64,000 nt of DNA from an uncultured Fibrobacteraceae bacterium (GCA_964343835.1 CAYFKR010000009.1:8927-72926), one strand, 5' to 3'; shown: positions 3,918 to 21,758, numbered from the stretch's first letter. Notes: generated from the sequence alone by a model not told the origin. Numbers and translations are program-made.

Positions 3918-6020
3918 TTGTCCGAGACCGCGAACATGGATCGGGACATGGTCCTGGCGAACAGCAACGTGCTGAGCGCCCTGGCCGTGGTCGCCGTGAT
4001 CGGTCTGATGATCATGCCGGTGGCGCCGCTGGCGCTGGACCTGCTGATCACGTTCAACATCGCGTTCGCGGTGGTCATCCTGCTCGTCGCCCTGTACCTG
4101 AAGGAACCCCTCCAGTTCTCCAGTTTCCCGTCCCTGCTGCTGATGGTGACCCTGTTCAGGCTCTCCCTGAACGTGGCGTCCACGCGCCTGATCCTGGGGG
4201 AGGCCCAGGCCGGCAAGGTGATCCAGAGCTTCGGCGACTTCGTGGTGGGCGGGAACTACGTCATCGGCGTGATCGTCTTCGCGATCCTGATGATCGTGCA
4301 GTTCGTGGTGATCACCAAGGGCTCGGGCCGCATCGCCGAGGTGGCGGCGCGGTTCACCCTGGACGCCATGCCCGGCAAGCAGATGGCCATCGACGCCGAT
4401 CTGGGTGCCGGCCTGATCACGGAGAAGGAGGCCCGCAAGCGCCGTCAGGACGTGAGTTCCGAGGCCGAGTTCTTCGGCGCCATGGACGGTGCCAGCAAGT
4501 TCGTGCGCGGCGACGCCATTGCCGGAATCGTGATCACCCTGATCAATATCGTTGCAGGGTTCGTGATCGGCATGCTGCAGCTGGACCTGTCGGCCGGCGA
4601 CTCCCTGCGCCGCTTCACCACCCTGACGGTGGGCGACGGCCTCGTGAGCCAGCTGCCCGCCCTGCTCATCTCCACGGCCGCCGGTATGGTGGTCACGCGT
4701 CAGAGCAGCGCCCTGAACCTGGGCCAGGCCCTGACCATGCAGCTGTTCCGCCAGAGCCGCGCGTCGGATCTGGCGAGCGCCGCCCTGATCGTGTTCGGCC
4801 TGATCCCCGGTCTGCCGACCATGCCCTTCCTGGTTCTCGGTGCTGGCTTCGGCGTGGCGGGCCGTCTGCTGAGCCGCAAGGTCAAGGCTGCCGAGGAGGC
4901 CGCCGAGGAAGCCGAGCGCATGGCCGAAGAGGCCGAGGCACCGCCCGAGCGCGAGGGCCAGGACCGCTTCATCACCGACGTGCTGGAACTGGAGCTGGGC
5001 TACGGCCTGCTGCCCCTGGTGGACGAGCGCCGCGGCGGCGACCTCCTGCAGCGCATCAGCAAGATCCGCCGGCAGGTGGGGCAGGAGCTGGGCGTGGTGG
5101 TGCACCCGGTCCGCGTGCGCGACAACCTGCAGCTCGACGCCAACCACTACGTGATCAAGCTCAAGGGCGTGGAGATCGCGCGTTCGGAACTCATGCCCAA
5201 CCGCCTGATGGCCATGAACGCCGCCGGGTCCGACGCCGAGTTCGGCGGCGTGGCCACGGTGGAGCCCGCCTTCAGGCTGCCCGCGCTCTGGATCGAGCCC
5301 GGCGTCAAGGCCGCCGCCGAGATGGAGGGCTTCACCGTCGTGGAGCCGTCCGCCGTGCTGACCACCCACCTCTCGGAGATCGTCCGCGCCCACGCCGACG
5401 AACTCCTGTCCCGCCAGGACGTGAAGGACCTGTGCGAGATCGTGCGCGAGTTCGCCCCCTCGCTCATCGAGGATCTGGTGCCGGACCGCGTGCCCGTGAA
5501 CGCCCTGCACAACGTGCTGCGCCTGCTGCTCCACGAACGCATCCCCGTCAAGGACATCGTCACCATCCTGGAGACCATGGCCAACCACAACGCCGCCACG
5601 GCGTCGGCCGACGCCCTGGTGGAGAAGGTGCGCGAGGCCCTGCGCCGGACCATCAGCTCCCTCTACGTGGAGCCCGACGGGAACATGCACGTGGTCTCCC
5701 TGCACCCCGACGTGGAACAGGTCCTGTACCGCGCCACCCGCGACAGCGACCAGGCCGGCGCGGTGGTCCTGGACCCCATGTTTGCCCAGTCGTTCCTCGA
5801 GCGCCTCGAGCGCGTGCTCCAGGCGGCCTACCGCCGCGGCACGCCGCCGTCGCTCCTGGTGCCGACGCCGATCCGCATGTTCGTCAAACGGCTCGTCGAA
5901 CCCACCTTCCCCAGCCTGGCCGTCGTCGGTTACACGGAGATCACGTCGCAGACGCAGATCCGATCCGCCGGCACGGTCGCGATGAAGGACGTGAACAATG
6001 AACTCTCAGCCTCAGCGTGA
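3918..6020 (+). CDS. flhA: Flagellar export apparatus protein FlhA
   Basis: 700 aa; N-terminal TM domain plus cytoplasmic FlhA-C domain; TTG start with GAAGGA RBS. Confidence 0.92.
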   Translation: MSETANMDRDMVLANSNVLSALAVVAVIGLMIMPVAPLALDLLITFNIAFAVVILLVALYLKEPLQFSSFPSLLLMVTLFRLSLNVASTRLILGEAQAGKVIQSFGDFVVGGNYVIGVIVFAILMIVQFVVITKGSGRIAEVAARFTLDAMPGKQMAIDADLGAGLITEKEARKRRQDVSSEAEFFGAMDGASKFVRGDAIAGIVITLINIVAGFVIGMLQLDLSAGDSLRRFTTLTVGDGLVSQLPALLISTAAGMVVTRQSSALNLGQALTMQLFRQSRASDLASAALIVFGLIPGLPTMPFLVLGAGFGVAGRLLSRKVKAAEEAAEEAERMAEEAEAPPEREGQDRFITDVLELELGYGLLPLVDERRGGDLLQRISKIRRQVGQELGVVVHPVRVRDNLQLDANHYVIKLKGVEIARSELMPNRLMAMNAAGSDAEFGGVATVEPAFRLPALWIEPGVKAAAEMEGFTVVEPSAVLTTHLSEIVRAHADELLSRQDVKDLCEIVREFAPSLIEDLVPDRVPVNALHNVLRLLLHERIPVKDIVTILETMANHNAATASADALVEKVREALRRTISSLYVEPDGNMHVVSLHPDVEQVLYRATRDSDQAGAVVLDPMFAQSFLERLERVLQAAYRRGTPPSLLVPTPIRMFVKRLVEPTFPSLAVVGYTEITSQTQIRSAGTVAMKDVNNELSASA

Positions 6021-7116
6021 TCTGCCCGTGGTGACGGTGCGGGGGAGGACGGCCCAGGAGGCCCTGTCCAACGTGAAGCGCCGCTACGGTCCCCAGGCCC
6101 AGATCCTGGAGAGTCGCGAGATGAGCGAACGCAGTCGCGACGACCTCGGCGAGCGCCGCTACGTGGAAGTCGACGTGGTGCTGAACGGCATGGGCGACGC
6201 GTCCGGCCCCGGCGGCGTGGCAGGCGCCCTGGCCGCCGAGGTGGCCCGCATCGAGTCCCTGGTTCGCGAGATCGAGAAGGGCGGTTCCGCGTCCGGCGCG
6301 GACGACGGCGACGCGACGCTGATGGCCGCCTACCCGCTTTCCGGCCACCTGCTGAGGGCGGGCGCCACCCGGCCCGCCGTGCGCCAGCTGGCCCGCATGT
6401 GGCAGGCGGACGGTGACGGCGGCGAGCCCCTCGAGCACCTGGCGGGCGTGTTCCGCGCCAGCGGCGGCGACTGGGAATCGTTCGGCGGCAGGCACCTGCT
6501 GCTCGGCCGTCCCGGTGCCGGCAAGACCTCGCTGATCCTCGGCGCCGCCGCCCGGCTGCGGTCCCTGGACCGCAAGGTGCTGGTGCTTTCCCTCGGCCGC
6601 GAGCGCAAGGGCGACATGCGCTGGCTCCAGGAGGAGGCGCGCGAGCACGGCTACGACGCCGCCGTCCTGCGCAAGGGTGCCCAGCTCGAGAAGGCGACCT
6701 CCCACTTCGGCGGGTACGACGCCGTGCTCATGGACGCCCCCGCCCTCGACGACCCCTTCCTGGCCGACACCACCGTGCGCCACCTGCTGGCCGACGACGA
6801 GCACACCCACCGCCACATGGTCGTGCCGGTGGACGCCGACCCCTCAGCCCTGAACGGCCTGTGGACCGAGTGCCGCCAGTGGAACTGCGACTGGATCGCC
6901 CTGAGCCGCGGCGACCTGGCGGCCCACAGCGGACGGCTCGCCGATCTGCTCCTGGCGGCGCCCTGCGCCGTCTCCCTGTCGTCGCGCGGGGCGTGGCCCG
7001 GTGCCGGGCCCCTGATCCCGTCGTCGCGACAGCTCGTGGGCTCGACGCTGGCCGGTGCGGCCACGCGGAAGCCGGGACGCACCCGCGGCCTCGCCGCGAA
7101 GGCCCTGGAGGTCTGA
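5998..7116 (+). CDS. flhF: FlhF-like SRP-type flagellar GTPase homolog with degenerate G-motifs
   Basis: N-terminal B-domain-like region (VKRRYGPQAQILESRE) and P-loop GRPGAGKTS, but the DTxR, DTAG and TKxD motifs are replaced (GRERKGD, DAPA, SRGD); overlaps the flhA 3' end by 23 nt. Confidence 0.6.
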   Translation: MNSQPQRDLPVVTVRGRTAQEALSNVKRRYGPQAQILESREMSERSRDDLGERRYVEVDVVLNGMGDASGPGGVAGALAAEVARIESLVREIEKGGSASGADDGDATLMAAYPLSGHLLRAGATRPAVRQLARMWQADGDGGEPLEHLAGVFRASGGDWESFGGRHLLLGRPGAGKTSLILGAAARLRSLDRKVLVLSLGRERKGDMRWLQEEAREHGYDAAVLRKGAQLEKATSHFGGYDAVLMDAPALDDPFLADTTVRHLLADDEHTHRHMVVPVDADPSALNGLWTECRQWNCDWIALSRGDLAAHSGRLADLLLAAPCAVSLSSRGAWPGAGPLIPSSRQLVGSTLAGAATRKPGRTRGLAAKALEV

Positions 7117-7119
7117 TCC

Positions 7120-7452
7120 GTGCAGCGCCTGGTCAATACGATGGCCCTGACCGCCGCCCTCGTCGCCGTGGGGATGGCCCTGCTGCGCGATTACGGCCTG
7201 CTGGTCACCCTGAAACGGGCCGCCATCGCCTACTTCGCCTTCTACGCCCTGGGGGCGGCCCTGGTCTTCGTCTTCAAGACGGGGATCGAGGAGGAATGGA
7301 TCCGCGACGCCCATCGCCGCAGGGCCATCGCCGACGCGAAGCGGAAGAAGGCCCAGATGGAAGCCGAGCGGCAGCACTACGCCTCCATGGAGGCGGAAGC
7401 GGCGGAAGTGGAAGCGGAGAAGGCTCAGCAGAAGGAAACAGCCGGCGTCTAG
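7120..7452 (+). CDS. Hypothetical small membrane protein (2 TM helices plus charged coiled-coil tail), in the position where flhG is normally found
   Basis: 110 aa, GTG start 4 nt after the flhF stop; no recognizable domain. Confidence 0.4.
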   Translation: MQRLVNTMALTAALVAVGMALLRDYGLLVTLKRAAIAYFAFYALGAALVFVFKTGIEEEWIRDAHRRRAIADAKRKKAQMEAERQHYASMEAEAAEVEAEKAQQKETAGV

Positions 7453-7476
7453 GGACGGCCGATGAACGGTAACGGG

Positions 7477-7492
7477 TGGCACGGAATCTGCA
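7477..7492 (+). promoter_or_regulatory. Candidate sigma-54 (-24/-12) promoter upstream of fliA: TGGCAC-ggaat-CTGCA
   Basis: GG and GC at canonical spacing, about 35 nt upstream of the fliA ATG (7527). Confidence 0.5.
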
Positions 7493-7526
7493 CATCGCGT
7501 CCGGACACCAGCGAGAAAGGCAGCAC

Positions 7527-8483
7527 ATGCTCAAGACCGATACCCTCGCCCACAGGGAACTCTGGGACCAGCTGACCGCCGGCGACGGTGGCAAGGCCCG
7601 TCAGGACCTGGTCGAGATCTATGCGCGCGTGGTCAAGTACGTGGCCGGTCGCATGGCCATCGGCCTGCCCCACTACGTGGACCAGAACGACCTCGTCTCG
7701 GCGGGGCTGCTCGGCCTGATCCAGGCCATCGACAACTTCGATCCCGACCGCGGGATCAAGTTCGAGACCTACGCCATCCCGCGCATCCGCGGCGCCATCC
7801 TGGACGAGCTGCGCTCGCAGGACTGGTTCCCCCGTTCCCTGCGCCGCAAGGCGCGTCAGCTCGAGGAGGCCGTGACCGGCCTCGAGGCCCGGTTCGGACG
7901 CCCGGCCACCGACGAGGAGCTGGCCCGGGAGCTCGGCGTGAGCCGCGACGAGCTGGCGACGATGATCGAGGAGGTCTCCGTCGCCACCATCATCTCCCTG
8001 GACGCCGACAGCTCCAGCGACGGCGACGACTCCACCACCCTCGGCGAGTACCTGCCCGACCCCAAGGCGGAGGACGTGGAGGAGAAGGTGTCGTCCCAGG
8101 AGATGGTCAAGCTCATCGCGGGCGGCCTGGAGGAACTGCCCGAGAAGGAGCAGCTCGTCCTGGTGCTGTACTACTACGAGGACCTGACGCTGAAGGAGAT
8201 CGGCGCCATCCTCGACGTGACCGAATCGCGCGTCTGCCAGATCCACACCAAGGCCATCATGCGCCTGCGCGGCAAGCTGCACCAGACAGCCGGCAAGAAG
8301 AGCATCGGCCGGCTGACCAAGGAGATCCGCGACCGCCGTCGCAAGCAGGACGAGCTGGACGTGGTGGAGGCCAAGTCGCTCAACCTCATGGCCGGGCTCG
8401 CCGTGCCGCCGATGATCCGCCTGGCCGAGGTGCTGCTGGAGATGCGGGTCCCGTGGCTCGAGCTGGACCGCTGGATGGGGTAG
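7527..8483 (+). CDS. fliA: RNA polymerase sigma-28 factor FliA/WhiG family with a C-terminal ~65-aa extension
   Basis: Sigma-70 regions 2-4 (YVDQNDLVSAGLLGLIQAIDNFDPDRGIKFETYAIPRIRGAILDELR; LTLKEIGAILDVTESRVCQIHTKAIMRLR); ATG 7527 with GAGAAAGG RBS preferred over the upstream track start 7476. Confidence 0.85.
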   Translation: MLKTDTLAHRELWDQLTAGDGGKARQDLVEIYARVVKYVAGRMAIGLPHYVDQNDLVSAGLLGLIQAIDNFDPDRGIKFETYAIPRIRGAILDELRSQDWFPRSLRRKARQLEEAVTGLEARFGRPATDEELARELGVSRDELATMIEEVSVATIISLDADSSSDGDDSTTLGEYLPDPKAEDVEEKVSSQEMVKLIAGGLEELPEKEQLVLVLYYYEDLTLKEIGAILDVTESRVCQIHTKAIMRLRGKLHQTAGKKSIGRLTKEIRDRRRKQDELDVVEAKSLNLMAGLAVPPMIRLAEVLLEMRVPWLELDRWMG

Positions 8484-8492
8484 GAGAAGGCC

Positions 8493-8801
8493 ATGGCTAA
8501 CGGAGACGGATTCGCGGTCAAGACCACCATCGCCCAGATGGGCGCGGTGGCCAAGACCCAGCTGAAGTCCCAGCAGGCCCAGCCGGCCGGCGCGGAACAC
8601 GCCCGCAAGCCGGGGGAGAAGGAGAGCCGCGTCGAGAAGGTCCGCGAGGCCGAGGAGGCCCAGAAGACCAACGTGGACCCCGACCGCAGGCGCGACGGGA
8701 AGAAGGGGAGTGGCAAGGGCCGTGACGAGGACGACCCCGACCGCACCGAAGACGACCTGCACGACGACGACATCGGCCTGATGGTGGACATCAAGGCCTG
8801 A
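8493..8801 (+). CDS. Hypothetical acidic, low-complexity 102-aa protein; speculative FlgM-like anti-sigma-28 candidate
   Basis: Good AGGAGAAGG RBS, 9 nt after the fliA stop; no recognizable domain. Confidence 0.4.
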   Translation: MANGDGFAVKTTIAQMGAVAKTQLKSQQAQPAGAEHARKPGEKESRVEKVREAEEAQKTNVDPDRRRDGKKGSGKGRDEDDPDRTEDDLHDDDIGLMVDIKA

Positions 8802-8816
8802 TCCCGGAGGACGGAC

Positions 8817-9284
8817 ATGGACATCATCGGAGCCCTTCAGGACGGACAGGGAACCCTCGCGTGGGTCACCGCGGTGCTGCTGGCCCTGGGCGGCACGGCG
8901 GTGGTCGTGGCGGTCTGGCTGCAGCTCCGCCGCGGCGTGCCCGCCATGACCATCCTCAAGGCCGTGCTCGGCGTGAAGACAGGCGCGGCCCGCACCGAAG
9001 AAGGTCCCGAAGGCGCCAGGGGGACCGACGCCCCCGCCACCGCGCCTGCGGAAGCGAAGGATTCCCTCCGCGAGCCGGTGGAAGCCGCCCTGAACGCCTA
9101 CCGGGCCGCCGCGTCCGTGGCGGAGACGCCCGACACCGGGACCGAGGATGCCGTGCTCACCGAGCGTCAGCTGAACGTGTACCTCGCGCGCCTGCGCAGG
9201 GCCGGAGACGCCCTGGAGCAGCTGGCCGCACGGGATCGGTCCCGGTCCGGCGAGCGCGACACCGTCGGCGCCACCGTTTCCTGA
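8817..9284 (+). CDS. Hypothetical single-pass membrane protein
   Basis: 155 aa, GGAGG RBS, one TM helix (AWVTAVLLALGGTAVVVAVWL). Confidence 0.4.
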   Translation: MDIIGALQDGQGTLAWVTAVLLALGGTAVVVAVWLQLRRGVPAMTILKAVLGVKTGAARTEEGPEGARGTDAPATAPAEAKDSLREPVEAALNAYRAAASVAETPDTGTEDAVLTERQLNVYLARLRRAGDALEQLAARDRSRSGERDTVGATVS

Positions 9285-9383: not shown

Positions 9384-10895
9384 GTGGAGCGCAACCTGAT
9401 CGTCCTGCTCGGACGCAACCCCCAGCTTTACAAGATCTTGGCCGACTGGCGACTGCCGGATGCGGACCTCTACGTCCACGACCAGGCGTCGGAGGCCCTG
9501 GCGGCCCTCGCCGACGGCCAGGCCAGCCTGTTCCTCTTCGATACGAGCGGCTACGGGAATGCCGGGCATATCATCGAGACCTTCCAGTCCCTCAAGGGCG
9601 ACGCCGACCTCATCGTCCTGGGCGAGCCGGCGGTGCTGGCCGACCTCCAGGAGCAGCCGCGGCGGGGGCGGATCCGGCGTCTCGACCTGTCCGCCTCTCC
9701 CGACGAGCTGCGCACCATGGTCGACCGCCTGCTCCGCCTGCGCAGCGTGCGGTCCCGCAGCGGCATCGTGGGCCGATCGGCAGGCGTCCAGCAGATGATC
9801 GCCCTGATCGCCCAGGCGGCGCCCCTGGACGTGAACGTGCTGATCCAGGGGGAGAGCGGCACCGGCAAGGAGCTGGTGGCCAGGGCCATCCACGCCCACT
9901 CCTCCCGGGCCGACGCGCCGTTCCTGAGCGTGAACTGCGGCGCCCTGAGCGAAGGCGTCCTGGAGAGCGAGCTCTTCGGGCACGAGAAAGGCGCCTTCAC
10001 CGGCGCGGTCCAGAAGCACGACGGCCTGTTCCGCCGCGCCGACGGCGGGACCCTGTTCCTGGACGAGGTGGCGGAGATGCCCCTGGGCATGCAGACCCGC
10101 TTCCTGCGCGCCCTGGAGACGGGGGAGTTCACGCCCGTGGGCGGTACCGCCATCCAGCGCAGCGACACCCGCCTGGTGGCGGCCACGCACCGCGACCTTG
10201 CGGCCGAGGTGGAGCGCGGCCGGTTCCGCCAGGACCTCTACTATCGCCTGCGGGTGGTGGTGATCCCCACGCCGCCGCTCCGGGAACGCATCGAGGACGT
10301 GCCGGTCCTGGCCCAGACCTTCCTCGACCAGGAAAACGAGCGCCACGGCCTCGCGGTGCGCGGGCTGAGCAAGCCGGCCCTGCGCGTGCTCGAGCAGTAC
10401 GGCTGGCCCGGGAACATCCGCGAGCTCCGGAATGTTGTGAGTTCCCTCGTGGTGCTCAAGCAGTCGGGGATGGTGGAGGCCGACGACCTGCCGGGCGATA
10501 TCGTGGAGTCGGTGGCCCACACGGGCAGCTCCCCCAACGTGCCCGTTCCCTTCGGCCCCTCCGGCGACGACGCCCTGCAGCTGGAGATCCTGCTGCGGAC
10601 CCTGTGGGAACTGCGCAACGACGTGAAGGAGATCAAGGACCGCCTCGGCCTGACTGCGGAACCCGCCCGCCAGTGGACCGACGACCGGGGCCTGCGCGTG
10701 GTGGACACCTACGCCGGGGAGGCGGGATACTCCACCGAGCCCGTGAGCGACGGCGGGGATCTCCAGAGCGCCGAGCGGACCCTGATCGAGTCGGCCCTGC
10801 GGGCCACCGGCGGACGTCGCCGCCAGGCCGCCGAACGGCTCGGCATCTCGGAACGGACGCTATACCGGAAACTCAAGAAGTACGGGCTGTCCTGA
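9384..10895 (+). CDS. Sigma-54-dependent transcriptional activator (bacterial enhancer-binding protein, FleQ/FlrA-like)
   Basis: AAA+ sigma-54 interaction domain (GESGTGKE, GAFTGA, GTLFLDEV), C-terminal Fis-type HTH; receiver-like N-domain lacks the acidic pocket; GTG start with AGGAGG RBS. Confidence 0.85.
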   Translation: MERNLIVLLGRNPQLYKILADWRLPDADLYVHDQASEALAALADGQASLFLFDTSGYGNAGHIIETFQSLKGDADLIVLGEPAVLADLQEQPRRGRIRRLDLSASPDELRTMVDRLLRLRSVRSRSGIVGRSAGVQQMIALIAQAAPLDVNVLIQGESGTGKELVARAIHAHSSRADAPFLSVNCGALSEGVLESELFGHEKGAFTGAVQKHDGLFRRADGGTLFLDEVAEMPLGMQTRFLRALETGEFTPVGGTAIQRSDTRLVAATHRDLAAEVERGRFRQDLYYRLRVVVIPTPPLRERIEDVPVLAQTFLDQENERHGLAVRGLSKPALRVLEQYGWPGNIRELRNVVSSLVVLKQSGMVEADDLPGDIVESVAHTGSSPNVPVPFGPSGDDALQLEILLRTLWELRNDVKEIKDRLGLTAEPARQWTDDRGLRVVDTYAGEAGYSTEPVSDGGDLQSAERTLIESALRATGGRRRQAAERLGISERTLYRKLKKYGLS

Positions 10896-12052: not shown

Positions 12053-12078
12053 GGCGCCCGCTCTACGAGCGGGGCGCC
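12053..12078. terminator. GC-rich hairpin between convergent genes (OMP + / mltD -), overlapping the mltD stop codon
   Basis: GGCGCCCGCTC-tac-GAGCGGGGCGCC imperfect inverted repeat. Confidence 0.35.
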
Positions 12079-13850
12079 CTGTAGGCGTAGAGGCGCTGGC
12101 CGGGCCTGATGAGGCTCGAGCGGTGCATGTTGTTGACCTGCCGCAGATGCTTCAGCGATACGCCGAGCTTTCGGGCGATGCCACTCAGGGTGTCGCCCGA
12201 TTTCACTTTGTAGCTCACCCGTTCGTGCCCCCGCGGCGGCACGTAGTGTCCGGCCTCGGCCGCTCGGCCCGCGATGCGCTCGGCCAGGGCGCCGGGCATG
12301 GGGATCACCAGCTTGTCGCCGGGGTGGATCATGGCCACGTCGCGGATGCGGTTCACGCGGGCCACGTCCGAGACGGAGGTGCCGTAGCGGCGGGCGATGG
12401 CGCCGAGAGTCTCGCCCCGCTCGACGGTGTGACGGCGCCAGGTGAGGCGCTCGTTCAGGGGGATCCGCCGCAGCTTCGTCATGCAGGTGCGGCCGGTGCC
12501 GGCGGGGACCTTCACGGCGTAGTCGGAACGACCCGGCGGCGTGGCGCCCCGCACCAGGGCGGGGTTCAGGTCCCGGACCGCCTCGGCCTCGACGCCGGCG
12601 CAGCGGGCGATGAGGTCCAGGTCCGTGGCGTCGGTCACGTCCACCACGTCGAAGTCCATGTCCGGCCGCTCCGAGACGGTCAGGCCGTAGGCCTCGGGAT
12701 TCTCGCCGAGCCGCGCCACGGCGATGAACTTGGGGATGTGGTTGCGGGTCTGGGCGGGCAGGTGCAGGTCCCAGAAATCGTCGTGGCCGCAGCGCTTGAT
12801 GGCGCGGTCCACGCGCCCCTCGCCGGTGTTGTAGGCCGCCAGCACCAGGGCCCAGTCGCCGAAGTGGTTGTAGAGCTGGGAGAGGTACTTGGCGGCGGCG
12901 CGCGTGGAGAGGAGCATGTCCTGGCGTTCGTCCACCCACCAGTCGCAGCGCAGCTTGAAGTGGCGGGCGGTGGGAGCCATGAACTGCCAGGGTCCCACGG
13001 CGGCGGCGCTGGAGCGGGCGCGGGTGTTGAATCCGCTCTCGATGGCGGCGAGGTAGATGAGTTCGCGGGGGAGGCCCGCCGCGTCCAGCTCCGCGTAGAT
13101 CAGGGAGTCGACGGCGGACTTGCGCTCCAGCCAGCGTTCGAAGTGGGCCTTGGCGTCGCCGGTGAAGTAGCGGATCCAACGCTCCACCTTCTCGTTCTCC
13201 ACCGCCAGCAGGTCCGTCTCGATGGTGCGCCGCGCCGATCCCGAGACAGGGATCAGGGAGTCGGGAAAGGCGAGGCCGCGGATGCCGGCGTAGGCGGCGC
13301 CCAGCAGGGAGTCGTCGGGGGCGACGGAGATGTCCAGGGCGCTCTCTTCGGCCACCACGCCCGCAAGCAGGGAGACCCGTCGTCCCAGACTGGCGAGGTA
13401 GGCGGCCGCCACGCTGTCGGCGTCGGCCGGGACGGTGGCCACGCATTCCTCGCTGAGCTGGAAGAGCACGTCTTCCGCGGGCTCGAACTGGCGGCGGGCG
13501 AGGAGTTCCAGGGCCTGCCGGTACAGATGGTCCAGCTGGGCCAGGTCGGGACGATCCTCGAGGACGGACTCGAGGGCGCTCGGCTCGTCCACGGGGACCT
13601 CGGCGATGAGGGTCTCGGGGACTGCGGGAGCGGGCTCGGCGACGACCTCGTCGACGGCGACCTCGACGGGAGCCGCAACCACCGGTGCAGGGTCGTCGGT
13701 CATGTCGGAGGAGGGTAGCAGGGCGCAGCCGGAGAGGGCGGCGAAGGCGATGCTCAGGACGGCGAATCGGACGGGCGACTTCACGAATTCGGGCCTCCTT
13801 GCCCCAGTTCCGGGGGTTCGCGGCGCAAGATGGTGTTCTGATTGCAACAA
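12063..13850 (-). CDS. mltD: Membrane-bound lytic murein transglycosylase D-like (SLT domain plus LysM repeats) lipoprotein
   Basis: SLT catalytic region (LAAIESGFNTRARSSAAAVGPWQFM...AAYNTGEGRV) and C-terminal LysM repeats (YKVKSGDTLSGIARKLGV); probable lipobox ALSGC, true start may lie downstream of the ORF start. Confidence 0.8.
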   Translation of the reverse strand: MLQSEHHLAPRTPGTGARRPEFVKSPVRFAVLSIAFAALSGCALLPSSDMTDDPAPVVAAPVEVAVDEVVAEPAPAVPETLIAEVPVDEPSALESVLEDRPDLAQLDHLYRQALELLARRQFEPAEDVLFQLSEECVATVPADADSVAAAYLASLGRRVSLLAGVVAEESALDISVAPDDSLLGAAYAGIRGLAFPDSLIPVSGSARRTIETDLLAVENEKVERWIRYFTGDAKAHFERWLERKSAVDSLIYAELDAAGLPRELIYLAAIESGFNTRARSSAAAVGPWQFMAPTARHFKLRCDWWVDERQDMLLSTRAAAKYLSQLYNHFGDWALVLAAYNTGEGRVDRAIKRCGHDDFWDLHLPAQTRNHIPKFIAVARLGENPEAYGLTVSERPDMDFDVVDVTDATDLDLIARCAGVEAEAVRDLNPALVRGATPPGRSDYAVKVPAGTGRTCMTKLRRIPLNERLTWRRHTVERGETLGAIARRYGTSVSDVARVNRIRDVAMIHPGDKLVIPMPGALAERIAGRAAEAGHYVPPRGHERVSYKVKSGDTLSGIARKLGVSLKHLRQVNNMHRSSLIRPGQRLYAYRAPRS

Positions 13851-13870: not shown

Positions 13871-13926
13871 TGTAGGTGTGCCTCGCGCGTGGGGAAGCAA
13901 TATACGCGATTCCCGGGCGCTTGGGA

Positions 13927-15324
13927 ATGGACGATCCACCAGGAGCGATCCGCTTGGAAGAGCTGATCAGGCAACTTCTTGCCCAGGTGCGACTTGGGCC
14001 GAATCAGCGCGCGCTGTTGCAGCGGGCTGCCGCGTCGCGCGATCCGGACCGGTTGCGGCAGGCCCTGCAGAAGGTCGTCTCCCAGCTGGTGGCCCGCGGC
14101 GAACTGGTCCGTGTCACCGTGGACGGCCGGGAGGCCGGCCCCGGTCTGATGGCGGTGCGTGGGCGTTCCACGCTCCTGGATCTCGGTAGCCTCCTGGGGC
14201 CATTGCCAGTCGAACCCGCCCCTCCGACCGATGAACCAGGAGAACCGCCCGCGACCTCCCGCGGGCCCGTCGGGGGGCCGTCGTCCCGCGAGGACATCCT
14301 CGACGCCATGGAACGGGCCCAGGCCCTGCAGTCGGTCCAGGATCAGGATCACGGATCGGCGTCGTGGCTCGAGCCCATCGTGGAAATGCTGGCGGCGTCG
14401 CTGCCCGACGTGGAGCTGCTCCTGGAACTCTTCGGCGACGACGAGATCGTCGACCATCGCCCCCGGCTCTTCCGGACCGCCGACCGCAAGGCGTTCTGGA
14501 GCGATGCGCGGGTGGCCGGCGAGGCGGTCTGGCTGCCGGATGCTTCGCAGTGCCCGCCCCATGTCCGGGCCCTGGCCGGCGACGGTTTCGCCTCCGGCAT
14601 CGCCGTTCCCGTCTACACCCCGCTGGACGACACCGACGACGCCGGAAGCCGCGAGGAAGCCGGCCTGCTCTACGTGCTGGCCCTGGGCGGCATGGACCGC
14701 GACACCCTCATGAGCCTCGGCACGCGGCTCTCGCGTTTCGTCACCCGCAGCTGGCGCCGTCGCCTGTCCATGAACCGCCTGGTTCACACCGACAAGCTCA
14801 CCGGCGTGCACAACCGCGGCTACTTCGACTCCCAGTTCGCCCTCGAGCTGGAGCGCACGCGACGCCGGGGATCGGAGCTGGTGCTGCTGATCGGCGACAT
14901 CGACCACTTCAAGGGCATCAACGACACCTACGGCCACCAGATGGGCGACCAGGTCCTGCGCACCGTGGCCCGCGAGTTGCTGAACGGGCTGCGCAAGATC
15001 GACCTGGTGTGCCGCATCGGCGGCGAGGAGTTCGCCCTCATCCTGCCCGACACGCCGCTGCAGGCGGCGGGCGAGGTGGTGGCACGTCTCCAGGTGCGCG
15101 TGGCGAACCTGCGGCTCACGGCCCCCGATCACCCCGACCCCATCCGCGTGACCATCTCGTTCGGCGGCGTGGCCAGCCCTGAGGGCGGCGACACGGCCGA
15201 CGACCTCTACAAGACCGCCGACAGGATGCTCTACCTGTCCAAGCAGCGGGGGAGGAACCGGTGCCACTTCTGGCGTGCCGACGACGAGCCCCTGCTGATC
15301 CTGCCCCGCTACGAATCCGACTGA
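13927..15324 (+). CDS. Diguanylate cyclase (GGDEF domain) with unknown N-terminal sensor region
   Basis: GGEEF active site preceded by an RxxD I-site (RKIDLVCRIGGEEFALIL). Confidence 0.85.
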   Translation: MDDPPGAIRLEELIRQLLAQVRLGPNQRALLQRAAASRDPDRLRQALQKVVSQLVARGELVRVTVDGREAGPGLMAVRGRSTLLDLGSLLGPLPVEPAPPTDEPGEPPATSRGPVGGPSSREDILDAMERAQALQSVQDQDHGSASWLEPIVEMLAASLPDVELLLELFGDDEIVDHRPRLFRTADRKAFWSDARVAGEAVWLPDASQCPPHVRALAGDGFASGIAVPVYTPLDDTDDAGSREEAGLLYVLALGGMDRDTLMSLGTRLSRFVTRSWRRRLSMNRLVHTDKLTGVHNRGYFDSQFALELERTRRRGSELVLLIGDIDHFKGINDTYGHQMGDQVLRTVARELLNGLRKIDLVCRIGGEEFALILPDTPLQAAGEVVARLQVRVANLRLTAPDHPDPIRVTISFGGVASPEGGDTADDLYKTADRMLYLSKQRGRNRCHFWRADDEPLLILPRYESD

Positions 15325-15353: not shown

Positions 15354-17654
15354 ATGCTTCTGCTGGTCTGGGGGGCCGGCTGGCTCCTGGGGTTCAGCGT
15401 CGAGGTACCTGTGCGATCGGCCGCCTGGGTGCCGCGGACGTTGACGCTGTCGCCCGTCGTGGGGCTCCTGGCAGGCGGCCCGGCGGCCGTCGTCGTGGCC
15501 GCCGGTGGCGGGTTCGTGGGCGGGGTCCTGCAAGCCGGAGGACTGGCCGCTGCTCGCCATGATGTTCCGCCGGTCCTCGCACCGGACCCGCTGGGACCGA
15601 GCATCCGGAACGGGCGGAAGTGCGGGGCTGCCCTGAGGATCACGGGCTGGGCCCGGGTGTCCGGTGACCACTGGAAAGTGCCGGCCGTGATCCTCGCGTG
15701 CGGTACTGCCGGAGAGGGCCCCCTGCCGACGCCACAGTCCGGTGAGGGAGTGCTGTTGGCTGGTGAAGGGACCGTGCCCGGTCCCGGGTCCATCGTCGCC
15801 GGCGTGGTCCGCTTCCGGGTGCCGGCGGGAGCGGCGGCTCCCGACGGATTCGACGAAGCCGTCTTCCTGGGTTACCGGGGGCTGCGCTACCGGGCGACCG
15901 TCATGGACGGGGAGGCGACGATCCTCGAGGGCGGGTCTCTCGACGCGACCGGTCGGAGGTTGCGGGGGCTGCGTCAGGGGATCAGGTCGGCGCTGGACCG
16001 CCTGGTTCCGCCGCGGGAGGCGTCCCTGCTGGCGAGCGTCCTGCTGGGCGACCGGACCCGGGACGACGGCGTGCCGAGGGAGGCGTTCGGGGCGCTGGGG
16101 TTGAGCCACCTCTTCGCCGTTTCCGGCCTCCACGTAGGCATCGTCGCCGCGGTGCTGCTCGCGGCGTTGCGCCCGCTGGGTGCCGGGCCCGGCTTGCGTC
16201 TCCCCGTCCTGGCCGTGGGGCTGGCGCTCTATGTCGTGCTGACGGGCATGGCGCCGTCGACGGTCCGGGCCGCCGTCATGGCGCTCGGTATGCTGGGAGC
16301 AGCGGTGGCGGGCCGGGCACGGCAGGCGCCGCTCCTGTTGGGGCTGGTCCTGTGGGGAACCCAGGTCTGGGATCCGCGGTCGGGTGGCGACATCGGGTTG
16401 CGCTTGTCGTTCCTGGCGGTCGGCGGCATCCTCGCCGCGAGTCGGGCTCCGGTGGCGGGGTTGCCTGGGCCGCTTCGCTGGATCGCGTCCGGCCTGACGG
16501 TGAGCGCGGGCGCCCAGGCCGCCACGGCGCCGGTCGTGGCCGGGGCGTTCGGCTGGCTGTCGCCGGTGGCGCCCCTGGTGAACCTGGTGGCCGTTCCCGT
16601 GTTCGGACTGGCGGTCTGGTGCGCGGTGCCGGCTCTGGCGTTGTCGGAGGTGCCTGGGGTCGGGAACACCTTCGGGGCGTGGGCCTGGCTCCTGCTGAGG
16701 GCTCTGGAGGGGGCGGCGGCATGGGGGAGTGCCGTCCTGGGCGCCCCCGCCGGCCTGATGCCCTGGGGCGCGGGGCGGCTGCTGGCCTGGGGGACGGGCT
16801 GGGTCCTGTGGTTGCGAGGGGGGAGGAGCATGGTCGCCGGTGCGATGCTCCTGGTCGCATTGCCCTTCCTGACGATCCGGATCGGCGGGGAGATGACGGT
16901 CCTCCAGGCCGACATCGGACAGGGCGATGCGGCGGTGCTGATCTTTCCGGACGACTCGGCCGTGCTGATCGATACAGGCGAGTCGTGGCGGGGTGGCGGG
17001 TCGCCCCTGGAGCGGACGGTGATGCCCTGGCTCAGGCGAAGGAACGTGGACACGCTGGCGGGGGTCGTCCTCAGTCATGCCCACGGCGATCATGACGGAG
17101 CGGCCGAGGCCGTGGCGCAGGCCCTGGAGGTCGAGCGCTGGTGGCTGGGCGGACGGACGACGGCGCCGGATGGAGCGACCTCTCACAGGCCGGAGGCTGG
17201 GGACACCCTCCACGCCGTTCCGCCCTGGAGCCTGGTCTGCCTCGCCAACGGGGGGCCGCCGGGTGCCGAGCACGAGAACGACCGATCCCTGGCCTGTGGC
17301 CTGGTTCGCGACGGTCGTCTGGCCATGCTCTGGACGGGCGACCTGGAGCTGGAGGGCGAGGAAGACCTCTTGCACCGGTGGCCGGAGGAGCTGATTGCCG
17401 ACGGGGTGATCCTCAAGGCGGGGCACCACGGCAGCCGGACGTCGTCGGGGGCGCCGTTGCTGGACTTCCTCGCCCCGGCGACGATCCTGGCGAGTTGCGG
17501 CATCGAGAGCCGTCACGGTCATCCCAGTCACGGACCGTTCCTGTCGCGCGGACGACCTATCTCCCTGCGCAGGACGGACCTGGAGGGTTCGCTGCAGGTG
17601 ACCTGGGAAGGGGCGGGCGGGGCGCGGATCGAAGGAACCCGCACGGCGCCTTGA
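15354..17654 (+). CDS. comEC: DNA internalization competence protein ComEC/Rec2 with C-terminal metallo-beta-lactamase domain
   Basis: Polytopic competence domain, then MBL motif VLSHAHGDHDGA. Confidence 0.8.
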   Translation: MLLLVWGAGWLLGFSVEVPVRSAAWVPRTLTLSPVVGLLAGGPAAVVVAAGGGFVGGVLQAGGLAAARHDVPPVLAPDPLGPSIRNGRKCGAALRITGWARVSGDHWKVPAVILACGTAGEGPLPTPQSGEGVLLAGEGTVPGPGSIVAGVVRFRVPAGAAAPDGFDEAVFLGYRGLRYRATVMDGEATILEGGSLDATGRRLRGLRQGIRSALDRLVPPREASLLASVLLGDRTRDDGVPREAFGALGLSHLFAVSGLHVGIVAAVLLAALRPLGAGPGLRLPVLAVGLALYVVLTGMAPSTVRAAVMALGMLGAAVAGRARQAPLLLGLVLWGTQVWDPRSGGDIGLRLSFLAVGGILAASRAPVAGLPGPLRWIASGLTVSAGAQAATAPVVAGAFGWLSPVAPLVNLVAVPVFGLAVWCAVPALALSEVPGVGNTFGAWAWLLLRALEGAAAWGSAVLGAPAGLMPWGAGRLLAWGTGWVLWLRGGRSMVAGAMLLVALPFLTIRIGGEMTVLQADIGQGDAAVLIFPDDSAVLIDTGESWRGGGSPLERTVMPWLRRRNVDTLAGVVLSHAHGDHDGAAEAVAQALEVERWWLGGRTTAPDGATSHRPEAGDTLHAVPPWSLVCLANGGPPGAEHENDRSLACGLVRDGRLAMLWTGDLELEGEEDLLHRWPEELIADGVILKAGHHGSRTSSGAPLLDFLAPATILASCGIESRHGHPSHGPFLSRGRPISLRRTDLEGSLQVTWEGAGGARIEGTRTAP

Positions 17655-17741
17655 CACCCCGCATCCGTGCTCGTACCATGCCCGCGTCGACCCCGGCCGT
17701 CCGGCCGAAAACCGTCGTTTTCCACCGAATCGGGAGCCCCC

Positions 17742-18647
17742 ATGAACGCGCTTCGCAGCACGGTCGATCTCGGCCTTTCGCCGGACCGCACCGGCAAGGT
17801 CCGCGAGATCTTCGACCTCGGCGACCAGCTCTTCATCGTCGCCACCGACAGGATCTCCGCCTACGACGTCGTCATGGACCAGCTCGTGCCCGGCCGCGGG
17901 TGCATGCTGACCATCATGACCCTGGCCTGGATGAAACGCTTCCCCGACGTGCCCAACCACCTGATCACCGCCGACCCCGACGCGTTCCCCGAGCCCTTCG
18001 CGTCCCACAAGGACGCCCTGGCCGGCCGGAGCATGCTGGTGCACAAGGCCGAGGCCTTTCCGGTGGAGTGCATCACGCGCGGCTACATCACCGGGTCGGG
18101 CTGGCGTTCCTACGTGGCCGAAGGCCACATCTGCGATCACGTGCTGCCCGAGGGGCTGCTCAAGAGCCAGAAGCTGCCGGAGATCCTGTTCACCCCGTCC
18201 ACCAAGGCGGACGAAGGGCACGACGAGAACATCTCCTGGGAGCAGATGGTGGAGATCATCGGCGAGGACGACGCCGTCGCCCTGCGGGACATCACCATGA
18301 AGCTCTACGGCGAGGGCGCCGAGTACGCCGCGTCCAAGGGCGTGCTCATCGCCGACACCAAGTTCGAGTTCGGCAAGGTGGACGGCCGCATCGTGCTGAT
18401 CGACGAGGCGCTGACCCCTGACTCCAGCCGCTTCTGGCCCGCCGACGAGCACGTGGCCGGTGAGGAGCCGCCGAGCTGGGACAAGCAGATCCTGCGCAAC
18501 CATCTCGACACCCTGGACTGGGACAAGTGCTACCCGCCCCCGCAGCTCCCCGACGAGGTGCTGGAGCGAACGGCCAGTCGTTATCGCGAAGTGCTGGACA
18601 TCCTGTTCCCCGAGGAGGCGGCCGCATGGCAGACGGTGCTGGACTGA
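17742..18647 (+). CDS. purC: Phosphoribosylaminoimidazole-succinocarboxamide synthase
   Basis: SAICAR synthetase motifs (KVREIFDLGDQLFIVATDRISAYDVVM). Confidence 0.9.
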   Translation: MNALRSTVDLGLSPDRTGKVREIFDLGDQLFIVATDRISAYDVVMDQLVPGRGCMLTIMTLAWMKRFPDVPNHLITADPDAFPEPFASHKDALAGRSMLVHKAEAFPVECITRGYITGSGWRSYVAEGHICDHVLPEGLLKSQKLPEILFTPSTKADEGHDENISWEQMVEIIGEDDAVALRDITMKLYGEGAEYAASKGVLIADTKFEFGKVDGRIVLIDEALTPDSSRFWPADEHVAGEEPPSWDKQILRNHLDTLDWDKCYPPPQLPDEVLERTASRYREVLDILFPEEAAAWQTVLD

Positions 18648-20191: not shown

Positions 20192-21751
20192 ATGAACGCC
20201 GACGCCATCCACCACGTGCACGACGAGATCGCCGTGCTGGACTTCGGATCCCAGTACACCCAGCTCATCGCGCGCCGCCTGCGCGAGGTGGGCGTGTTCA
20301 GCCAGATCTACCCGTACCACGACTACGCGAAGGTGCTCGGCCGTCCGGAGGTGAAGGGCATCATCCTGTCGGGCGGCCCCTCTTCCGTGTCGGACGAGTA
20401 CGCTCCCGACGTGGGCCCGGAGGTGCTCGAGGCCGGCGTGCCCGTCCTGGGCATCTGCTACGGCATGCAGCTCATGGCCCTGAAGCTGGGCGGCCGCATC
20501 GACTCGTCGGACAAGCGCGAGTACGGGCCCGCACGGATCCGCGTGGAGGATCACGACGGTTTCTTCGCAGGCACGCCGGACGTGCAGGGCGTGTGGATGA
20601 GCCACGGCGACCGGGTGGGCGACCTGCCCGCCGGGTTCGAGGTGCTGGCCACCACCGACGACATCCCGTACGCCGCGGCGGCGGATCGGGAGCGCGGCTT
20701 CTGGTGCGTCCAGTTCCACCCGGAGGTGGTCCACACCGAGCACGGCATGACCATGCTGCGCAGTTTCGTCCGGGACATCTGCTCGGTCACGGAGGAATGG
20801 TCCGCCAGCGCCTTCGTGGACGAGGCCGTGGCCGACATCCGCGCCCGGGTGGGGGATCGCAAGGTGCTGTGCGGCGTGAGCGGCGGCGTGGATTCCACGG
20901 TGGTGGCGGCCCTGCTGGACAAGGCCATCGGCGATCAGCTCCACACCGTGTTCGTGGACAACGGCCTGCTGCGCCTCGGCGAGGCGGGCCAGGTGGAGCG
21001 CACCCTCAACGGGTTCCTGCACCGTCCCATCATGCGGGTCGACGCCCGCAACCAGTTCCTCAACGGCCTCGAGGGCGTGGCCGAGCCCGAGCGCAAGCGC
21101 AAGATCATCGGCAACACCTTCATCGACGTGTTCAAGTCGGCCACCCGCGACCTGGGCGACTTCGATTTCCTGGCCCAGGGCACGCTCTACCCGGACCGCA
21201 TCGAGTCGGTGTCCATCAACGGGCCGAGCCACGTGATCAAGACCCACCACAACGTGGGCGGTCTGCCCGAGGAACTTGGCTTCGAACTCATCGAGCCCCT
21301 GAAGGACCTGTTCAAGGACGAGGTTCGCCGCGTGGGGCGCAGCCTGGAGATCCCCGAGGACCTGTTGATGCGCCACCCCTTCCCGGGCCCCGGCCTGGGC
21401 GTGCGCATCCTCGGGCCGGTGGACCGCGACAAGGTGCGGCTGCTGCAGGAGGCGGACCACATCTACATCGAGGAGCTCCACGCCAGCGGCCAGTACGGGA
21501 AGATCTGGCAGGCGGGCGCGGTGCTGCTGCCGGTCCAGACCGTGGGCGTGATGGGCGACCAGCGCACCTACGAGTCGGCGGTGGCCCTGCGGGCGGTGAC
21601 GAGCATGGACGGGATGACCGCGGATTGGGCCCGGATCCCCGACGACGTGCTCGCGCGCGTCAGCAACCGTATCATTAACGAGGTCCCCGGCATCAACCGG
21701 GTGGTCTACGACATCAGCAGCAAGCCGCCGAGCACCATCGAGTGGGAATGA
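20192..21751 (+). CDS. guaA: GMP synthase (glutamine-hydrolysing)
   Basis: GATase1 domain (ICYGMQLM) plus PP-loop ATP-PPase (SGGVDSTV) plus C-terminal GMP synthase domain. Confidence 0.92.
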   Translation: MNADAIHHVHDEIAVLDFGSQYTQLIARRLREVGVFSQIYPYHDYAKVLGRPEVKGIILSGGPSSVSDEYAPDVGPEVLEAGVPVLGICYGMQLMALKLGGRIDSSDKREYGPARIRVEDHDGFFAGTPDVQGVWMSHGDRVGDLPAGFEVLATTDDIPYAAAADRERGFWCVQFHPEVVHTEHGMTMLRSFVRDICSVTEEWSASAFVDEAVADIRARVGDRKVLCGVSGGVDSTVVAALLDKAIGDQLHTVFVDNGLLRLGEAGQVERTLNGFLHRPIMRVDARNQFLNGLEGVAEPERKRKIIGNTFIDVFKSATRDLGDFDFLAQGTLYPDRIESVSINGPSHVIKTHHNVGGLPEELGFELIEPLKDLFKDEVRRVGRSLEIPEDLLMRHPFPGPGLGVRILGPVDRDKVRLLQEADHIYIEELHASGQYGKIWQAGAVLLPVQTVGVMGDQRTYESAVALRAVTSMDGMTADWARIPDDVLARVSNRIINEVPGINRVVYDISSKPPSTIEWE

Positions 21752-21758
21752 GGTGACG

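Follow-up and report, generated by a model that had tools for sequence, protein, structure and literature searches.

An FlhF homologue with degenerate GTPase motifs and no neighbouring flhG in the flagellar operon of a Krumholzibacteriota-like lineage

The position and number of flagella are set in many bacteria by a switch composed of an SRP-type GTPase, FlhF, which uses GTP to define both, and a MinD-type ATPase, FlhG, and the two proteins are treated as an inseparable pair of GTPase and activator. FlhF also has an interaction partner, FipA. A 2025 review describes FlhF and FlhG as consistently encoded together, with flhG lying directly downstream of flhF across bacteria, and places a FliG-interacting domain in the N-terminal region of canonical FlhF (PMC12826062). 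FipA, a DUF2802 protein featuring an N-terminal transmembrane segment and a cytoplasmic helical part, has been reported only from genomes that carry both FlhF and FlhG (PMC11620751).

Here, we analysed a 64-kb window (the whole stretch of DNA under study, ~70% GC), in which positions 5998-9284 are part of a flagellar export and regulatory operon from a Krumholzibacteriota-like lineage, with the gene order fliN-fliO-fliP-fliQ-fliR-flhB-flhA-flhF-orf110-fliA-orf102-orf155. All of the features described below lie on the plus strand, and all sequences used for comparison are metagenome-derived. The five open reading frames that the initial annotation had called in this interval are all present, with GC3 values of 0.88-0.94, and encode a homologue of FlhF, a 110-aa protein with two transmembrane segments, FliA, a charged protein of 102 aa and a single-pass membrane protein of 155 aa. 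The block is preceded by flhA (3918-6020; TIGR01398, 844 bits, above the family cut-off), which defines the canonical position of flhF, and is followed, in conserved synteny, by a gene for a sigma-54 enhancer-binding protein whose N-terminal domain could not be assigned (9384-10895). Its synteny is kept in 25 unique loci, including that of one Krumholzibacteriia MAG from NCBI. The first 23 nt of flhF overlap the end of flhA, and the genes of the block, of which those after fliA had been described as translationally coupled, turned out to be separated by 3-15 nt, to carry SD-like sequences and not to overlap. A search with Rfam found no RNA families in the window. Compared with the FlhF/FlhG switch of Bacillus, Vibrio, Shewanella, Pseudomonas and Campylobacter, the locus is alike in the flhA-adjacent position of flhF, in the B-N-G architecture, N-terminal motif and NG fold of the encoded protein, and in having fliA in the same operon; it differs in the substitution of motifs G2-G5, in a protein score that reaches neither the FlhF nor the SRP54 threshold, and in having no flhG downstream.

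The FlhF homologue (5998-7116, 372 aa) is, on the evidence of a predicted fold and its gene neighbourhood, a positional and structural orthologue of FlhF, because it immediately follows flhA in the export operon, matches an FlhF N-terminal profile, retrieves FlhF as its best match in the PDB and is modelled with the FlhF fold. A profile built from 55 canonical FlhF N-termini recognises the B-domain motif at 6040-6171 (23.8 bits, E=5.6e-8), with E-values down to 4e-12 in relatives. The top matches of a PDB sequence search were the FlhF structures 2px0 (best) and 8r9r, and an AlphaFold2 model computed from a three-sequence alignment has an SRP NG fold (pLDDT 71 overall, 80-90 in the NG region), which Foldseek aligned to FlhF 8r9r with a TMt of 0.74 and an rmsd of 4.0 and to 2px0 and 2px3 with scores of 0.65-0.67, Ffh and FtsY being found at similar E-values. 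The protein falls well below the TIGR03499 FlhF cut-off (46 bits against 174) and below threshold for Pfam SRP54 (E=0.15; PF00448, 12 bits against 22.7). Protein homologue searches with the sequence or its alignment returned only 2-3 proteins, and a scan of genome contigs with patterns from this protein found nothing. The same scan with FlhA was dominated by the universal DAMPGKQM pattern and retrieved only distant FlhAs, at most 51% identical, whose loci serve as a comparison set and not as relatives.

GTP hydrolysis and nucleotide-dependent dimerisation need the Asp/Arg of G2, the Gly of G3, the Lys of G4 and the G5 motif, and the G3 Gly and G5 make contacts to the gamma-phosphate and the base. 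As originally noted, the window protein retains both its N-terminal B-domain and an intact G1 P-loop (GRPGAGKTS, 6505-6531), and has GRERKGD (6595-6615; clade consensus PRHxGE) in place of the G2 motif DTxR, DAPA (6733-6744) in place of DTAG at G3, and SRGD (6904-6915), preceded by a clade-invariant WNCDW, in place of TKxD at G4. G5 is lost as well, with GAWPG standing where GQxxPED is expected. By alignment, the window copy keeps an arginine (R203) at the position of the canonical G2 arginine, where the clade consensus is His, and it keeps the Asp of G3 (D246) and of G4 (D306), both at least 90% conserved in the clade. Since the P-loop and these two aspartates are intact, this particular copy could still bind nucleotide.

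The substitutions are a trait of the clade. They are common to ~65 cluster representatives, drawn from a family with 42 representatives at E<1e-30 and 84 at E<1e-10; G2 is retained in none of ~70 full-length members, and the P-loop lysine is replaced or lost in 22 of these ~70 with the rest of the conserved sequence kept. The replacement motifs PRHxGE, DTPA, WNCDW, TRxD and GPWP are among the most conserved columns of the clade alignment, and dN/dS is 0.19-0.30, with nonsynonymous evolution two to three times faster than in FlhA. Because the G2 Asp/Arg, G3 Gly, G4 Lys and G5 have given way to other motifs, which the clade in turn conserves, the protein is a predicted pseudo-GTPase.

No gene for FlhG accompanies it. 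As the initial annotation had proposed, flhG is missing from its usual slot and from the window, and an HMM made from 53 canonical FlhGs had no match in these 64 kb or in ~450 kb of related loci (10 kb on either side in each relative). An flhG/MinD gene was thus present in 0 of 24 clade loci, compared with 57 of 70 comparison loci. The suggestion that the two losses belong together also fits, in that FlhF motifs and flhG are both missing in 27 of 27 clade loci. Among unrelated comparison loci, FlhG was present in 51 and absent from 3 with an intact FlhF core and was present in 5 and absent from 5 where the core is lost (p=0.0015 by Fisher's test, without phylogenetic correction); because five comparison loci pair a degenerate FlhF with FlhG, the coupling is not absolute.

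The 110-aa protein encoded next to the degenerate flhF (orf110, 7120-7452) has the two transmembrane segments ascribed to it (two hydrophobic peaks, KD 2.06 and 2.17), followed by a charged tail, and belongs to a family found directly upstream of fliA. It had been thought to occupy the slot of FlhG, which does not hold: the same family coexists with canonical FlhF and FlhG in four loci, where its gene is placed between flhG and fliA or immediately before fliA, ruling it out as a replacement. Its HMM matches all clade loci and, in addition, L003, L010, L036, L046 and L063. Given this coexistence with flhG in canonical loci, the arrangement here is best described as a putative deletion, without replacement, of the gene for the GTPase activator of FlhF from between flhF and orf110. 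The dN/dS of orf110 is 0.21-0.41 and it has no Pfam match; more generally, all three small open reading frames are kept under purifying selection in ~20 related loci, and none of them matches FlgM, FipA or any Pfam family.

We consider a nucleotide-independent FlhF scaffold, left after the loss of flhG, to be the best reading of the locus and a reasonably probable one. The degenerate FlhF would act as a scaffold or landmark whose N-terminal domain still engages early basal-body components and which is no longer switched off by an FlhG-stimulated GTPase cycle, and the control of flagellar number and timing would have moved elsewhere, the candidates being the clade-specific features around fliA, namely the sigma-28, which ends in a hydrophobic helix, and the conserved orf102/orf155 pair. 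The rewired, GTP-independent control proposed at the outset survives in so far as G2-G5 and flhG are lost together, and not in its use of orf110 in the place of flhG. An alternative that retains nucleotide would have the protein bind GTP and be unable to hydrolyse it, yielding a permanently GTP-locked dimer that depends on nucleotide, does not cycle and needs no activator. The window copy would suit such a dimer, with its GxxGxGKT/S loop, the Mg-coordinating D246 and the guanine-specifying D306, these aspartates being widely conserved; however, the P-loop lysine has gone from almost a third of clade members whose other conserved sequence is kept, and the G3 Gly and G5 have gone from nearly all, so we hold this alternative to be rather unlikely.

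A MinD/ParA-family gene encoded elsewhere in the genome might take over the role of FlhG in trans, in which case the lack at this locus would be only apparent; we judge this very unlikely. The FlhG search in this genome covered 64 kb, and in some species MinD can stand in for FlhG and vice versa (PMC12826062), yet a gene reported to lie consistently directly downstream of flhF is missing from all 24 clade loci, and the FlhF residues on which an activator would act (G2 Arg/Asp, G3) are themselves gone. The faster nonsynonymous evolution of the degenerate FlhF relative to FlhA might also suggest that it and the small open reading frames are remnants, decaying as the lineage loses its motility, an explanation to which we give almost no weight: the frames are intact in more than 60 representatives, GC3 is high, the flagellar operon on either side is conserved in full, and the dN/dS of 0.2-0.4 for all four genes largely refutes it. 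The scaffold reading remains the preferred one, and flagellar control appears to be wired differently in this lineage.

The sigma factor of the operon is fliA (7527-8483), which contains regions 2, 3 and 4 and matches TIGR02479 (FliA_WhiG) with 270.8 bits against a cut-off of 189.6; its start is probably the ATG at 7527, giving 318 aa, and not the alternative GTG at 7476. Beyond the initial annotation, we observed that FliA carries a clade-specific C-terminal extension of roughly 60 aa with a hydrophobic end (8289-8480), in which a basic motif and a linker precede a hydrophobic helix (8379-8444). Past region 4.2, the FliAs of clade loci continue for 56-81 aa, whereas the tails of 66 comparison FliAs have a median length of 8 aa and never exceed 19. 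Lengths of 303-342 aa are found throughout the 120 nearest FliA clusters, a 17-residue stretch with KD of at least 1.6 occurs near the C-terminus in 95 of 117, and AlphaFold2 models residues 287-305 of the 318 as a helix (pLDDT ~80). In our literature searches, we met no description of a sigma-28 that has such a helix at its C-terminus. With its additional segment past region 4.2, FliA recalls those ECF sigma factors whose C-terminal extensions are regulatory, and also membrane-tethered or pro-sigma factors, although it is a group-3 sigma-28 and not an ECF factor; the extension could regulate or localise FliA. A read-through fusion of fliA and orf102 was rejected, since the two share a frame in the window and do not do so consistently in relatives.

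The gene flgM does not usually lie directly after fliA. Here, that position is taken by orf102 (8493-8801), whose 102-aa product, flagged earlier as acidic, is so only mildly (pI 5.2; 23 acidic and 19 basic residues), is 41% charged and probably disordered, and is conserved at its N-terminus (GDGxSxxTTxAQxGxVA) and C-terminus (GxLxDxKA). It is present in 19-20 of 20 evaluable clade loci, with dN/dS of 0.17-0.41, and in ~20 of 20 begins 9 nt downstream of fliA with an SD-like sequence of its own. It has no match in Pfam or the PDB, and the FlgM HMM (PF04316) had none at E<=1 in 17 members, which excludes it from the FlgM family. It might nevertheless, as first proposed, be a functional FlgM analogue, an anti-sigma-28 factor made together with FliA. 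In keeping with this, it resembles FlgM in its small size, its charge and probable disorder, and its co-transcription with flagellar genes, and no FlgM is listed in the KEGG annotation of a Krumholzibacteriota MAG that has most of the flagellar genes (PMC10936416 supplement); on the other hand, sequence, profile and structure-database similarity to FlgM are all lacking, and its conserved end motifs differ from the sigma-binding helices of FlgM. Its sole homologue outside the clade belongs to the deltaproteobacterial locus L057, where fliA is 2 kb away and the next gene downstream is FipA-like; this ties orf102 to a membrane partner more than to sigma-28, and we regard the anti-sigma-28 role as unlikely.

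The last gene, orf155 (8817-9284), encodes a protein that is single-pass as predicted (one hydrophobic peak, KD 2.34), occurs at all 20 clade loci that could be evaluated and has a conserved C-terminal helix, LxxLLxRLxxAxDxLEE. It shares with FipA and DUF6115 proteins a layout in which a short N-terminus leads into one transmembrane helix and then a helical domain in the cytoplasm, and its gene, too, is downstream of the flhF-fliA operon. Membership of either DUF2802 or DUF6115 was rejected, as their HMMs had no match in 16 orf155 members, alignment with 17 FipA-like proteins gave an hhalign probability of 0.3%, and the conserved G...E..L domain was not found. A search for FipA motifs in gammaproteobacterial loci found nothing within 10-kb flanks. 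In L057, the gene after the orf102 homologue encodes a DUF6115/DUF2802 protein, and in L003 a degenerate FlhF and orf110 come before a gene for a FipA-like transmembrane protein (70% probability in hhalign), after which the same HDOD pair is found. Judged from these gene orders, the place of orf155, after orf102 and before the HDOD pair, is that of candidate FipA-like membrane partners of FlhF elsewhere.

A more far-reaching version of the scaffold reading, which we think quite unlikely, is that the FlhF-GTP/FlhG switch and FlgM-type control may have been replaced in Krumholzibacteriota-like bacteria by a tail-anchored sigma-28 checkpoint. The nucleotide-independent FlhF scaffold would mark the assembly site, and sigma-28 would stay at the membrane, anchored through the hydrophobic helix at its own C-terminus and kept there jointly with orf102, orf155 and possibly orf110, to be freed only on completion of the basal body.

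A whole lineage keeps FlhF under purifying selection after loss of its catalytic motifs and of flhG, and such lineages are natural separation-of-function variants that may tell which FlhF roles, such as FliF/FliG capture and landmarking, need no nucleotide cycle, with the conserved small partners and the extended sigma-28 as concrete candidates for an alternative control of number and timing. Separately, a similar retention of FlhF after loss of the motifs and of flhG was seen in Chloroflexota, Thermoleophilia/Gaiellales and Opitutales.

The 372-aa protein encoded immediately 3' of flhA (5998-7116) scores only 46 bits against the FlhF model TIGR03499 (cut-off 174) and falls far under the family threshold for Pfam SRP54 (E=0.15). 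A profile made from 55 canonical FlhF N-termini aligns with residues 15-58 (E=5.6e-8), and the AF2 model (pLDDT 71 overall, 80-90 within its NG part) resembles SRP-type NG domains, with the top target-normalised TM-scores belonging to FlhF structures (0.74 for 8r9r, 0.65-0.67 for 2px0/2px3). Based on its position after flhA, its N-terminal profile and its predicted fold, we identified the protein as FlhF. FlhF 2px0 also ranked first in a PDB profile search, and alignment to this structure was used to set the equivalences of the GTPase motifs G1-G5. The P-loop (G1, GRPGAGKTS) is intact, while DTxR (G2) is replaced by GRER(KGD), DTAG (G3) by DAPA, TKxD (G4) by SRGD and GQxxPED (G5) by GAWPG. The proposal in the initial annotation that this FlhF keeps its N-terminus and P-loop and has lost DTxR, DTAG and T/NKxD is therefore borne out.

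The gene order flhA-flhF-orf110-fliA-orf102-orf155, with flhF in its degenerate form, is found in 25 unique related loci, referred to here as the clade, in which FlhA identity ranges from 62% to 84%. An exhaustive HMMER search over 1.84 billion representatives recovered 42 relatives of the degenerate FlhF at E<1e-30 and 84 at E<1e-10, with canonical FlhFs ranking below them. G2 is kept in none of the ~70 full-length members and G3 or G5 in almost none; TKxD is retained in one subgroup. The best-conserved columns include the substituted positions themselves (PRHxGE, DTPA/C, HRH, WNCDW, (S/T)RxD and GPWP). These conserved replacement motifs, together with a dN/dS of 0.19-0.30, rule out a decaying gene; the non-synonymous rate is 2-3 times that of FlhA. 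Judged from its sequence, the protein is remodelled and maintained, and this FlhF orthologue is a conserved pseudo-GTPase. As such it would act as a scaffold via its retained N-terminal domain and need no nucleotide cycle. The main rival explanation is that the window FlhF may still bind GTP in a locked-on form: it retains the P-loop and both key aspartates. Across the ~70 full-length members, the P-loop lysine is substituted or lost in 22 (GxGRT or worse). Alongside an FlhF that serves as a scaffold independently of nucleotide turnover, control would have moved to the module around fliA.

Searching with an HMM of 53 canonical FlhG sequences gave no match at E<=1e-3 in the 64-kb window or in any related locus (~450 kb in total), and at E<=10 the sole matches in clade loci were the degenerate FlhF proteins. 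Of 70 evaluable comparison loci (distant flhA loci, mostly with canonical FlhF and FlhG), 57 have flhG in the 3.5 kb that follow flhA, as against 0 of 24 clade loci. The gene is thus gone from the locus throughout the clade, in line with the absence first noted in the window. The further claim that the two losses are mutually consistent holds as a tendency. Comparison FlhFs with intact G2 D..R and G3 D..G divide into 51 with FlhG and 3 without, as against 5 and 5 for those in which G2 or G3 is lost (Fisher p=0.0015, a value that ignores phylogeny), but the coupling is not absolute: two Bdellovibrionota-like loci (L041, L081), for example, keep flhG together with a degenerate FlhF whose P-loop is lost too. 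Degenerate FlhFs lacking an adjacent flhG occur in Chloroflexota (L008 and L044, both with a GxGRT P-loop), Thermoleophilia/Gaiellales (L017, L032) and Opitutales (L026).

The three small genes are real and conserved. All are under purifying selection (dN/dS ~0.2-0.4), and none matches a Pfam family or PDB entry. The 110-aa product of orf110, which has two TM helices, had been thought to fill the FlhG slot. However, the orf110-family HMM detects homologues (E=1e-14 to 1e-22) immediately 5' of fliA in four loci where FlhF and FlhG are both canonical (L010 10174-10542, L036 19789-20100, L046 19790-20134 and L063 16275-16589), the first of which has the order flhA-flhF-flhG-orf110-fliA; this coexistence rules out a role as FlhG stand-in. 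The hosts of these four loci are an unclassified marine bacterium, Lachnospiraceae and Bacillota. On homology and gene position, the family is best described as an uncharacterised fliA-upstream gene spanning phyla. Another locus, L003, has an orf110 homologue downstream of a degenerate FlhF.

In the orf102 product, a charged middle separates a conserved N-terminus from a C-terminal GxLxDxKA motif that is also conserved. Outside the clade it has a single homologue, in L057, a deltaproteobacterial locus whose FlhF and FlhG are canonical. This homologue lies directly 5' of a TM protein that is FipA-like according to its matches to DUF6115 (33.8 bits, above cut-off) and DUF2802 (E=2e-4); both, followed by fliK and an flhB-C-like gene, fall within 17079-18000. 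This suggests that orf102 and a membrane partner form a conserved pairing. orf155 shares the architecture and gene position of FipA (PMC11620751), yet its profile shows no resemblance to 17 FipA-like proteins (hhalign probability 0.3%), and so it is a positional analogue whose family membership is not demonstrable. The slot ahead of the HDOD gene pair that related loci share is filled in L003 by a TM protein that hhalign rates as FipA-like (probability 70%).

FliA itself carries a C-terminal extension of ~64 aa in the window (8289-8480, hydrophobic part 8379-8444). In the clade it measures 56-81 aa; the tails of 66 comparison FliAs reach at most 19 aa (median 8). A variable linker joins its conserved basic motif (HEGKxSIGxxT) to a hydrophobic segment that lies 2-14 residues short of the C-terminus. 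All 120 of the 120 nearest FliA clusters (303-342 aa) conserve the extension, which is absent from the 66 comparison proteins. A tail 17-mer with KD>=1.6 is present in 95 of 117 clusters (median 1.89), the window FliA's own tail being lower at 1.4-1.5, and AF2 (64 sequences) predicts a helix in the hydrophobic segment (pLDDT ~80). The extension may be a membrane tether or regulatory tail on sigma-28; a literature search found no report of a sigma-28 with such a hydrophobic C-terminal extension. FlgM is missing from a published KEGG table for a Krumholzibacteriota MAG in which most flagellar genes are present (supplement of PMC10936416), but so small a protein is readily overlooked, which makes this weak evidence.

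The five genes end a single compact plus-strand operon that occupies the first 9.3 kb of the window (GC ~70%) and begins with fliN, a fliO-like ORF, fliP, fliQ, fliR, flhB and flhA. Their GC3 of 0.88-0.94 matches the coding signature of the host genome. flhF starts inside flhA, with a 23-nt overlap, and the gaps that follow flhF are 3, ~70, 9 and 15 nt, with an SD-like sequence at each. A scan found no promoter-like sites and no excess of terminator-like sites (2 versus 1.4 expected from shuffling). The ORF in the fliO position (356-763, 135 aa), between fliN and fliP, matches no NCBIfam model.

Downstream, related loci usually continue with two HDOD genes, a sigma-54 activator, a divergent SLT/LysM gene and a GGDEF gene. 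The tandem HDOD/HD-domain pair separates orf155 from the activator in most relatives (e.g. L110 13553-15396, L114 11882-13718), follows the FipA-like gene in L003, and is missing between 9284 and 9384 of the window and from its closest relatives (L083-L087). The window's syntenic sigma-54 enhancer-binding protein (9384-10895) has an unassigned N-terminal domain of ~120 aa that matches neither REC nor FleQ domains; in other bacteria, FlhG/FleN inhibits activators of this type. The SLT-LysM transglycosylase (12063-13850, minus strand) and the GGDEF diguanylate cyclase (13876-15324, plus strand) also keep their syntenic places downstream of this block in related loci. A permuted tmRNA called by ARAGORN at 51149-51593 (tag ATASARRAP) is probably a false positive, since Rfam at gathering thresholds matched neither tmRNA nor any other family in the whole window. 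FliA homologues at 65-70% identity carry the NCBI names Candidatus Krumholzibacteriia or Krumholzibacteria, and one related locus comes from MAG GCA_046484865.1. A large ORF at 21618-24443 ends in an FlgD_ig-type domain, known from sorting domains in the FCB superphylum, which fits the Krumholzibacteriota assignment.
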